64,000 nt of DNA from Schmidtea polychroa (lineage: Eukaryota), in assembly GCA_044892525.1 (NCBI GenBank), contig CM097887.1:61566001-61630000 (forward strand), written 5' to 3'. Below, piece by piece: positions 24,251 to 26,606 of this stretch. Within the stretch, counting starts at the first letter, position 1, and each line of letters starts with the position of its first letter. The translations under genes and the position numbers were made by a program. Under the pieces are notes generated by a model. That model was not told the origin of the DNA and made no database searches. It saw only the letters and a list, made by a program, of their open reading frames with translations.

Positions 24251-26606
24251 GTTGTCCTAGAATAATTCAATTGACGACTATATGATTCGAAGGGGTAGTT
24301 ATAGAAGATTTTTACAATCGAAATATATACATATCATTATCATAATTATGGGAAAAATACGGTTGGGTTTTAAAAATTTCTAAAGTATTTATATAATATA
24401 TACTACAGTAAACACAAAATCTTGACGGAATTGATTAAGGGTTGTCCCATAATTAAGCAAATAGACATGAACCAAAAATCATATTTTATTTTATAGTATC
24501 TATATAACTAGTATATGTATGACAAAAACTTTGAACTAATTTAGGCATTTTAAGGGCATTCATATGGCCCCAAAATGAGGACTCTGTTTTAATTCTAAGC
24601 AGTTATATAACCGATGCTTACTAGGTAAGGCAATAAACATAAAAATACTTTGAAATAACTAAAGTGATGATTTGTAATTATTCGAATAGATATGAATTAA
24701 GGATTATATTTTAATTTTTAAAGTATTTGCCTAGCCAGCATATAATATGTATGACGATGAACAGGAGAACTTTCATGGAATGATCTGAGAGTCATTATAT
24801 AATAATTAGTCACATTCATATAAATGTCAATAGATAAATTCTTATAACACGATTCTAGAGGGTGGGGTTTAATAATAAATCTCTATTAATCAAACAATAG
24901 GGCTACCGGGTGTATGTTTAGAGAACGTCCTTTGGGTAGGGCAGATTCCTTTTAATCAACTAATATATACATTTCTAAAATAATCAGGTGACGTTGATAC
25001 TAGTAGGTATATGTAGAAAATCTTTTATTTAGTACCAAGTTAATAATTAGTATAGGCATATATCTCCCTGAAATACATTCTAATGATATCGGTTTGGAAT
25101 ATAATGTCCACATTAACCTAAAATTATATGAAGCACAAGTTTGGCTCACATGGGTTTAAAATCGTTATCCAAGAATAATTACACCATCGCATTTAAATTA
25201 GATTCTGGCTTTTTGATTATAGACTTTCGGATTTAAATATGATTACCAGTAATATCGATAAGAGTAAATTAATAATATTTGATATCAAAAATATTAAACA
25301 TTTGAATAGTTTGTGTAATTAGCCGACTACTTGAGAACTTTCGTGATCATTTAAGTCTGGGATATTTCCCGTTTAGATTTTCTTAATGATGTATTCCTAT
25401 AGAATAGTTGAGTGTGTATTTTAGATATGTCGTTTACCGGAAGGTCGAATTAATTAAAATTTTCCTACTTTCCCGACTCAACTGAATACGGTACGATAGG
25501 CCTTATTGTATTATGTTTCCCGCGATTACTAGCCCAAATTTTATTTCGTCCGCATAGTTCCTGCGACTATGCCAACTACCTGGATGGATTTACCGCCCTA
25601 CTCCTGGTTAGAAACCATTTGTTCGTGGCGACCTTCCGGTTAAAAAAAAATGAAATTTTGTGCATGTAGGGTCGTAGACCCGATTGTGTGCGTGCGGACT
25701 ATCAGTTGGAAACAAGGCTGATCAGCGTCGCGAATACAACCCGTCGACGACGCTGGTCACTCTTGTTACATAATAGTAAAATGATGATAAAAAGGACAAA
25801 ATTAATAATTAATATAATTTAGCATAAAATAACAATTATATAATCAAAAAAAAATCAATCACCCTTACTTTCAATACTTGGTGTTTCGGAAAAAATTTTT
25901 GGCATACAAAAATATCTGAATTTTGACGAAAATGCGTCGGTATATATACCTGTTTTGTACACGTGTATGTATTGATGCATTAAAACAAACTCGAATTCTT
26001 TTTATTCCAGAATTTTCTATTTTGTAATTTTGATATTTATAATGGCAATTTTTGTGCCATAATTTTTGTTTTTATTTTTAAAATTTTATTCTTTAATTAT
26101 TTTTTGTTAATTTTACGTCCATGATGGATTTGGAACGGTTCCAGAACATTCCATATTACTTTTAATTTAATTTTTATTTTAACTGATGTTCTCTGAATTT
26201 CTTTTTAAGATTTTTTTATTTTTATTACTAATTTATTTATTTTTTCTAAATTTTATTGTTTAAGTTAGCTTTTATGATGGTCATCGCCATTTTTATGGAA
26301 TGTTCTGGGTTTTTCTGGAATTTTTTACTGTTTTTACCGTCTTTTAAGTTATTCGAGTTTGTTTTTTGTAACTCTATGTTTATTTGGTTATTTTTGAGTT
26401 CGATGTTGCATAACTTCTTGCTTTTGGTATAATTTTATTTAATTTCTGTGTTTATGCTTTTGTTGTTTTCCCCTTTGATTAATATTGTTTATTTGGTGTA
26501 TTTTTAATATTTAACTACCTTTTTTGCTTTTTGCATGTTGTGTACCTACGCATTTCAGCCACAATTAGAAGTTTGGGTCTAGAAATCAGTTCTAGCCCAA
26601 CATCCT

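Follow-up and report, generated by a model that had tools for sequence, protein, structure and literature searches.

A conserved hairpin position next to a structured RNA core in LTR-like 6-kb repeats of Schmidtea polychroa, with a candidate role on unspliced RNA

The window, i.e. the whole 64,000-nt stretch of S. polychroa DNA analyzed here, is AT-rich animal DNA harboring a Polinton, a 19.5-kb Gypsy element and several copies of a 6-kb repeat. The Polinton/Maverick (2806-17849) carries a PLA2-like N-terminal domain on its integrase ORF, and its terminal repeats contain a very stable hairpin (z about -10) at 3093-3183, mirrored at 17520-17586, within an AT-rich tandem array. The resident Gypsy (20271-39770) displays 1.1-kb LTRs, the TSD TTTG and a PBS after 27318. 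Its polyprotein pieces comprise gag, Bcl-2-like, fusion-glycoprotein, protease, RT, RNase H and integrase domains in a reading frame broken by several stops or frame changes, and an extra 608-aa ORF lacking a Pfam match precedes the 3' LTR. Bcl-2-like and mononegaviral-type fusion-glycoprotein domains precede the protease, the same domain order as in the available part of the Burro description (PMC6431247). Host-like exons encode an ankyrin-repeat protein (42407-43060, plus strand), a membrane protein (45093-45695, minus strand) and an SR-type RRM protein (59761-60300, plus strand; 94% to P0002). The 6-kb repeat is present in the following copies:

Copy A, 20650..26602, minus strand (E-): 5,953 bp, TSD TCCT, solo-LTR-like, within the 5' LTR of a Gypsy
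Copy B, 51117..56816, minus strand: 5,700 bp, TSD GCTG, nested in copy C
Copy C, part with promoter, hairpin and core, 46626..51116, plus strand: split by B, TSD CAAT
Copy C, part with ORF3 and far end, 56817..58200, plus strand
Copy D, 18511..19857, minus strand: diverged and partial, with core, hairpin, promoter and one terminus

The second end of copy D was not found in the window. A decayed short piece of the same family lies at about 43680-44750 on the minus strand and keeps both end regions, without core, H1 (see below) or ORFs. Throughout, E+ denotes the strand used in a previous sequence-only reading of this DNA, which is the window plus strand for A, B and D and the window minus strand for C; E- is the opposite strand and that of the element's predicted transcript. 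All three complete copies have TG...CA ends and a 4-bp TSD, with nine of 12 terminal bases inverted. A Pol II promoter and a poly(A) signal inside the repeat, as expected of a solo LTR, are recognizable as motifs, and neither an RT nor a transposase domain is encoded in the scanned ORFs of A, B, C and D. PBS, PPT and internal region of the 6-kb repeat were not seen in the window, in public contigs or in pattern scans of viral and metagenome collections (0 matches to the element in each), so that LTR identity and orientation rest on analogy; the loose contig ends at 26603, among the 18 of 412 loose ends listed, are not PBS-like. Because they share the end type and TSD length of the resident Gypsy, we read the 6-kb repeats as solo LTRs of a giant relative, and by this analogy they most likely derive from a Burro-like giant Ty3/Gypsy family.

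Motifs of a predicted Pol II transcription unit were identified on E-:

Predicted TATA box of A, 25941..25948, minus strand; in B 56154-56161 (minus), in C 47243-47250 (plus), in D 19129-19136 (minus)
Predicted first 5' splice site AA/GTAAGG of A, 25863..25870, minus strand, with GT at 25868; in B at 56075, in C at 47328, in D at 19028
ORF2 of A, 21856..22335, minus strand: 159 aa with an AT-hook-like motif, start codon directly behind the acceptor predicted at 22338
ORF3 of A, 20971..21408, minus strand: 145 aa, a coiled-coil-like long helix and a basic helix, downstream of the acceptor predicted at 21429
AATAAA of A, 20945..20950, minus strand, about 20 nt after the ORF3 stop; in B 51410-51415, in C 57894-57899

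The TATA box places the predicted transcription start of A at about 25917. The predicted donor is conserved in all four copies, inside a hypervariable tract, and two predicted acceptors, each just before an ATG, together with AATAAA after the second ORF, are found in A, B and C (3/3). The TATA decamer GTATATATAC occurs at five sites in the window, which all belong to A, B, C or the pair of Gypsy LTRs. With CA(A/C)AATT 14 nt behind it, the decamer reads only in gag-pol sense in the Gypsy and only on E- in A, B and C; the combination lies 616-659 nt from the LTR start and has no match in 200 shuffles, for a pattern that was chosen post hoc. The decamer of A, B and C is palindromic, and the TATA box of D reads only on E-.

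ORF2 is found in B at 52324-52782 and is broken in C by a stop and by the insertion of B; ORF3 lies at 51435-51875 (minus strand) in B and at 57433-57876 (plus strand) in C. Both ORFs evolve under purifying selection (dN/dS 0.16-0.26, p <= 1e-6 in 4/4 comparisons), from which it follows that E- has been translated. The AT-hook-like match of ORF2 (E 0.005-0.01) is at or below the Pfam cut-off, and none of 210 candidate relatives was confirmed. The predicted model of ORF3 is mainly one long helix. An NES-like pattern in four of four rows and a basic motif in three of four provide a weak hint at function, because coiled coils often contain patterns of this sort. A single close relative of ORF3, itself unnamed (P0001), and one distant match (P0003, E 1e-4) were found, the latter being an ORF3-like segment at the end of a parvin-like (CH domain) protein model, which suggests a gene prediction or a transcript that uses the element's acceptor. 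No named relative was found for either ORF, Atlas matches were all under 0.9, and the ORF3 profile yielded 288 pattern matches in viral contigs, none of which was confirmed.

Between promoter and ORFs, the copies harbor a hairpin at a common position (H1) and a structured core. Further long hairpins were chosen by folding, as was H1:

H1 of copy A, 25711..25767, no strand assigned: stem-loop, fold compared with shuffles
H1 of copy B, 55923..55982, no strand assigned: stem-loop, fold compared with shuffles
H1 of copy C, 47431..47490, no strand assigned: stem-loop, fold compared with shuffles
Hairpin of other sequence at the H1 position of copy D, 18884..18953, no strand assigned: fold, stem register, alignment and background windows
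Conserved structured core of A, 25349..25683, minus strand; in B 55563-55895, in C 47520-47854, in D 18511-18843
H2, second long hairpin, 22875..22959, plus strand, favoring E+
H3, 20-bp G-U-rich hairpin with invariant loop, 23696..23743, plus strand, favoring E+
H4, hairpin favoring E-, 20777..20830, minus strand, with a compensatory U-A / U-G / C-G series across A, B and C
H5, 19-bp stem with six G-U pairs on E+, 25931..25981, plus strand, overlapping the TATA box

The sequence-only reading had described four stem-loops at one position, with arms shared by A, B and C and a stem containing G-U pairs and one mismatch. All four were recovered at the coordinates above, and the shared arms are the same apart from one A>G in the 5' arm of B, with C lying on the window minus strand. 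In a 20-position register on E+, the A-type stem comprises 17 Watson-Crick pairs, two G-U pairs and one C-C, and that of B comprises 16, three and one, respectively; in D, the 22 positions hold 17 Watson-Crick pairs, three G-U pairs and two mismatches. Compared with 200 dinucleotide shuffles per copy and strand, none folded as well as H1 on E+ in any of the four copies (z -5.4, -4.5, -5.3 and -4.7 for A, B, C and D), and on E- as-good folds numbered 0, 0, 0 and 2 (z -3.6, -4.1, -5.9 and -3.6). Folding energy prefers E+ in 4/4 copies, the z-score in 3/4. G-U pairs (A, B, C, D) number 2, 3, 2 and 3 on E+ versus 0, 0, 0 and 1 on E-, and the single arm change of B yields a G-U pair on E+. Transitions in the background show no bias (11 vs 15; 61 vs 56), so that mutational bias does not explain the excess on E+. 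The earlier claim that the G-U pattern favors plus-strand RNA in A, B and D is borne out as far as this excess goes, but the only readable transcription unit lies on E-. Among the best 30 of 805 hairpins in the window, none comparable to H1 belongs to the resident Gypsy LTR.

Base-by-base comparison of H1 covered three A-type copies (A, B, C) and one D copy. Arms differ at 1/40 positions between A and B and at 0/40 between A and C, whereas the loop and 25-nt flanks differ at 30/71 and 21/70, i.e. 30-42% (Fisher p 1.7e-6 and 2.5e-5), in agreement with the loops having been reported to differ between copies. Measured against the 3' 640 bp of the element, which differ by 6-7% substitutions, the arms show no significant excess of conservation (p 0.21 and 0.08); H1 is distinguished as a conserved island within a hypervariable tract. 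Covariation, which had been suggested as a check of the proposed RNA structure, did not appear: 18 of 19 stem pairs are invariant, with no two-sided change among A, B and C. The hairpin of D, said to form a stem from an unrelated sequence, indeed aligns to A, B and C no better than shuffles do (497-876/2000). It sits between the same two anchors, 42 nt after the last motif of the core (28-31 nt elsewhere) and 69 nt before the splice-donor motif (87-97 nt in the others), and it has the best z among the 114 windows of D, a comparable class being found in 2/450 background windows. A by-eye block match between D and A (wobble and mismatch motif, GATC block, apical TCG/CGA) was not significant (500/3000), and D's hairpin may reflect either replacement of, or deep divergence from, the A-type H1.

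Public sequencing runs, used here as assembled contigs, were also compared; runs X1 and X3 are only guessed to be RNA, and the contigs have no bearing on expression. Contig variants around A were read from the 40 of 200 substitutions, 12 of 61 indels and 18 of 412 loose ends listed, and no substitution or indel fell into the H1 arms among the substitutions and indels so listed. In run X4, 14,810 records fit the H1 region, and the summed contig depth, which does not equal copy number, amounts to 92,000 and 187,000 in the hairpin bins compared with 15,000 for either of the flank bins next to them (6-12x). One X1 contig matches up to the last base of the H1 stem and rejoins 123 nt later, and three X4 contigs depart from the reference at 25682, the point where D also diverges. 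Selection on an RNA structure, as proposed from the sequence, finds partial agreement: the island of conserved arms, the position kept in D, the X4 depth and the X1 contig end speak for it, and the lack of covariation in A, B and C against it. The H1 hairpin is real and selected. The opposite view, by which the hairpins are neutral remnants of small inverted duplications inherited by descent, could appeal to the comparison with the 3' 640 bp and to the few copies comparable base by base, but it is highly improbable with arms fixed amid 30-42% divergence, a different hairpin in the same slot of D that is so rare in background windows, and a roughly tenfold drop in contig depth immediately beyond the stem. 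A dyad-symmetric double-stranded DNA site downstream of the promoter, serving a host factor or the AT-hook ORF2 product with RNA folding being incidental, would account for an arm sequence that is invariant without compensation around a spacer of variable length (17-20 nt), and the AT-hook-like motif of ORF2 would suit it. Such a site predicts no G-T versus A-C strand asymmetry, yet this asymmetry is seen, and D retains the shape rather than the sequence; we regard this reading as very unlikely.

The adjoining core of about 330 nt is 80% identical between A and D and matches at 334/335 positions between A and C. A 12-bp long-range helix closes several short hairpins whose loops vary among copies and contigs, and two-sided changes are found in 3/59 consensus pairs. 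Its z-scores are -3.0 (A), -3.1 (B) and -3.1 (D) on E-, compared with -3.6, -2.0 and -1.3 on E+. The structured core, rather than H1, may be the more important element. Hammerhead, group I/II, SRP and tRNA identities of the core were dropped after a by-eye comparison of motifs and have no support from Rfam, which gave no match at gathering score in the whole window and, below it, best E-values of 0.68 around A and 2.2 around D. Of the other hairpins, H2 is identical at 100/113 positions between A and B, compared with 490/706 in the block behind it, and about 37 nt of its 3' arm are identical in a block that is otherwise about 70-75% identical. H5 is not kept in D (z +1.3). Comparison of whole copies shows A and C to be near-identical over 25020-25680, up to the core end, and about 94% identical over 25680-26602, and B and A to have nothing in common over 24300-25235; the 6-kb repeat is built as a mosaic whose modules are exchangeable, with a junction located close to H1. 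H1, H2, H3 and H5 favor E+, and the transcription unit, the core and H4 favor E-, which leaves either strand as the working strand of H1.

Features of H1 also recall a small-RNA precursor. Like pri-miRNAs, H1 forms a stable hairpin without branches whose duplex measures about 22 bp, and the pri-miRNA pattern of conserved arms with a diverged loop is present in A, B and C only, D differing throughout. H1 could be an LTR-borne precursor of a miRNA or endo-siRNA, excised either from the E- intron or from an antisense E+ transcript on which H2, H3 and H5 would lie as well, with the slot of D providing a different small RNA. Both 20-nt arms are fixed while loop and flanks turn over, the 57-70-nt stem-loops have pre-miRNA size, the G-U excess on E+ is non-mutational, three further long hairpins favor E+, and a place in the intron would leave the spliced mRNAs intact. 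Both H3 and the 5' arm of D may resemble the multi-member S. mediterranea families miR-753 and miR-754. The canonical basal stem of pri-miRNAs measures about 11 bp; at H1, a basal stem beats shuffled flanks in two of eight copy-strand cases, A and C on E- (9 and 6 of 300), and in B, in D or on E+ it is no better than shuffled flanks (46-291/300). Unlike a foamy- or BLV-type Pol III miRNA cassette, H1 has no exact A or B box within 600 nt around it in A, B and D on either strand, in a scan of exact boxes that left mismatched ones unscored, and no T4 run directly follows the stem on E+. No E+ promoter was identified in the sequence, Rfam gave no match at gathering score or below E 0.6, and the arms have no other 12-mer match in the window. 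Against this evidence, a small-RNA precursor is a possible but somewhat doubtful reading, for which miRNA clusters in foamy-virus LTRs, in the available part of PMC3993851, offer a precedent.

The E+ preference also admits a role in cis. E+ might be the genomic sense, placing H1 in U3 at the RNA 3' end with the ORFs as antisense accessory genes, or H1 might fold in minus-strand strong-stop DNA and aid strand transfer. Four of the five conserved hairpins favor E+, although their G-U pairs are not independent tests, because the hairpins were picked by folding; the TATA decamer of A, B and C is palindromic, ATTAAA followed by a T-rich tract is located at 25980 on E+, and A/C identity, near-complete within the core, is only about 94% on the far side of H1, a pattern like that of a recombination junction. 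D, however, has a TATA box readable only on E- and AGTAAA instead of ATTAAA, the promoter layout on E- matches that of the resident Gypsy, core and H4 favor E-, and H5 is lost in D. We consider a cis role of E+ nucleic acid quite unlikely.

Tentatively, and with a probability approaching but not reaching an even chance, we favor reading H1 as a stem-loop that acts in cis within the 5' leader of unspliced RNA made by the element itself. Pol II would start about 30 nt below the TATA box on E-, and a 50-110-nt non-coding exon would end at the conserved donor. The intron would be joined to one of two acceptors, giving rise to mRNAs that encode a pair of small accessory proteins. H1 and the adjoining 330-nt core would stand at the head of this intron and, being inside the predicted first intron, would be carried by unspliced RNA only. 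By analogy, H1 and core might act as a protein- or RNA-recognition module marking the unspliced RNA, whose task could be packaging or dimerization, nuclear export or control of the nearby donor, comparable to Psi or a Rev-response element. H1 follows the predicted donor by 69-97 nt and precedes the core by 28-42 nt, and D keeps the shape and place of H1 without its sequence; both observations are consistent with a cis signal. Against it, H1 pairs better on E+, as do H2, H3 and H5, and invariant arms without two-sided change fit a small RNA or a DNA site equally. The sequence-only reading had named a miRNA/siRNA precursor, a TAR-like signal and a packaging signal as options, among which a packaging- or leader-type signal would fit best by position, judged by analogy. 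A TAR-like signal does not fit, H1 of A lying 150-205 nt from the predicted start, beyond the donor and in the intron.

A broader proposal, that the LTR of an invertebrate Ty3/Gypsy family is under complex-retrovirus-like control, with alternatively spliced mRNAs for two accessory proteins and an intronic response element, H1 plus core, which one of these proteins would recognize in handling unspliced RNA, or, instead, an LTR-borne small-RNA cluster with an exchangeable H1 slot, is unlikely as it stands. If it were true, solo LTRs would be self-contained regulatory genes, present in very many copies across the host genome. Sorting of spliced from unspliced RNA, or small RNAs of their own, in giant planarian retroelements is not addressed in the portions of the literature available here. 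The locus offers exact coordinates for testing: a promoter, a donor, two acceptors, two selected proteins and a structured module with natural subfamily variants. Six arm motifs had no literature match and were absent from the files searched, three of the four supplements of PMC3840308 and eight files of PMC5671611. The available portions of PMC8532177, PMC11410931, PMC13238120, PMC8797187 and PMC6591238 contained nothing on LTR structure, no gypsy packaging stem-loop past a major splice donor was found in the literature, and the matches listed for Rev-like export with LTR retrotransposons all concerned retroviruses or other viruses. Stem-loops in retroelement leaders are already known; a hairpin slot that is occupied by another hairpin in a diverged subfamily, in a 6-kb LTR-like repeat with a predicted two-ORF spliced unit, was not found in Rfam or in the literature, the primary Burro paper and several miRNA supplements aside.

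Among known systems, the giant Gypsy-like LTR retrotransposons Burro/GYPSM1 of dugesiid planarians, with an internal region of up to 25 kb and a total length over 30 kb, are the closest in kind. The description, as far as available, implies multi-kb LTRs and accessory ORFs like those of the 6-kb repeat, and reports Bcl-2-like and fusion-glycoprotein domains as in the resident Gypsy of the window, whose 4-bp TSD and end type the 6-kb repeat has; its available part mentions no spliced ORFs or RNA structures inside the LTR (PMC6431247). In contrast to Burro, an internal region joined to this repeat was not seen. Foamy-virus LTR miRNA clusters resemble H1-H5 in consisting of several pre-miRNA-like hairpins in a very long LTR, some without a canonical basal stem; according to the available part of the source, they are transcribed by Pol III within U3, and their 22-nt products have been sequenced (PMC3993851), whereas H1 has no exact A/B boxes and apparently lies downstream of a predicted Pol II start. 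Retroviral Psi/dimerization signals and Rev/Rex response elements are structured RNAs able to tell unspliced from spliced RNA, and the HIV-1 RRE, 351 nt in length and made up of branches on top of a long base stem, has a size and outline similar to the core of the element; Psi is not always intronic, the RSV donor being downstream of Psi (PMC5035971, PMC10746203, both in the parts available). Unlike Psi and RRE, the planarian module lies inside an LTR and has no sequence or Rfam similarity to them. Rev/Rex-type proteins, in the accounts available, are made from spliced mRNAs and are small, with basic and NES-like motifs that may be compared with the ORF3 patterns; ORF3 differs in being a long coiled-coil-like helix with no named relative, and a binding or export role is putative. 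A Rev/Psi-like system or an LTR miRNA cluster in Ty3/Gypsy would, if true, extend features of complex vertebrate retroviruses to these elements.
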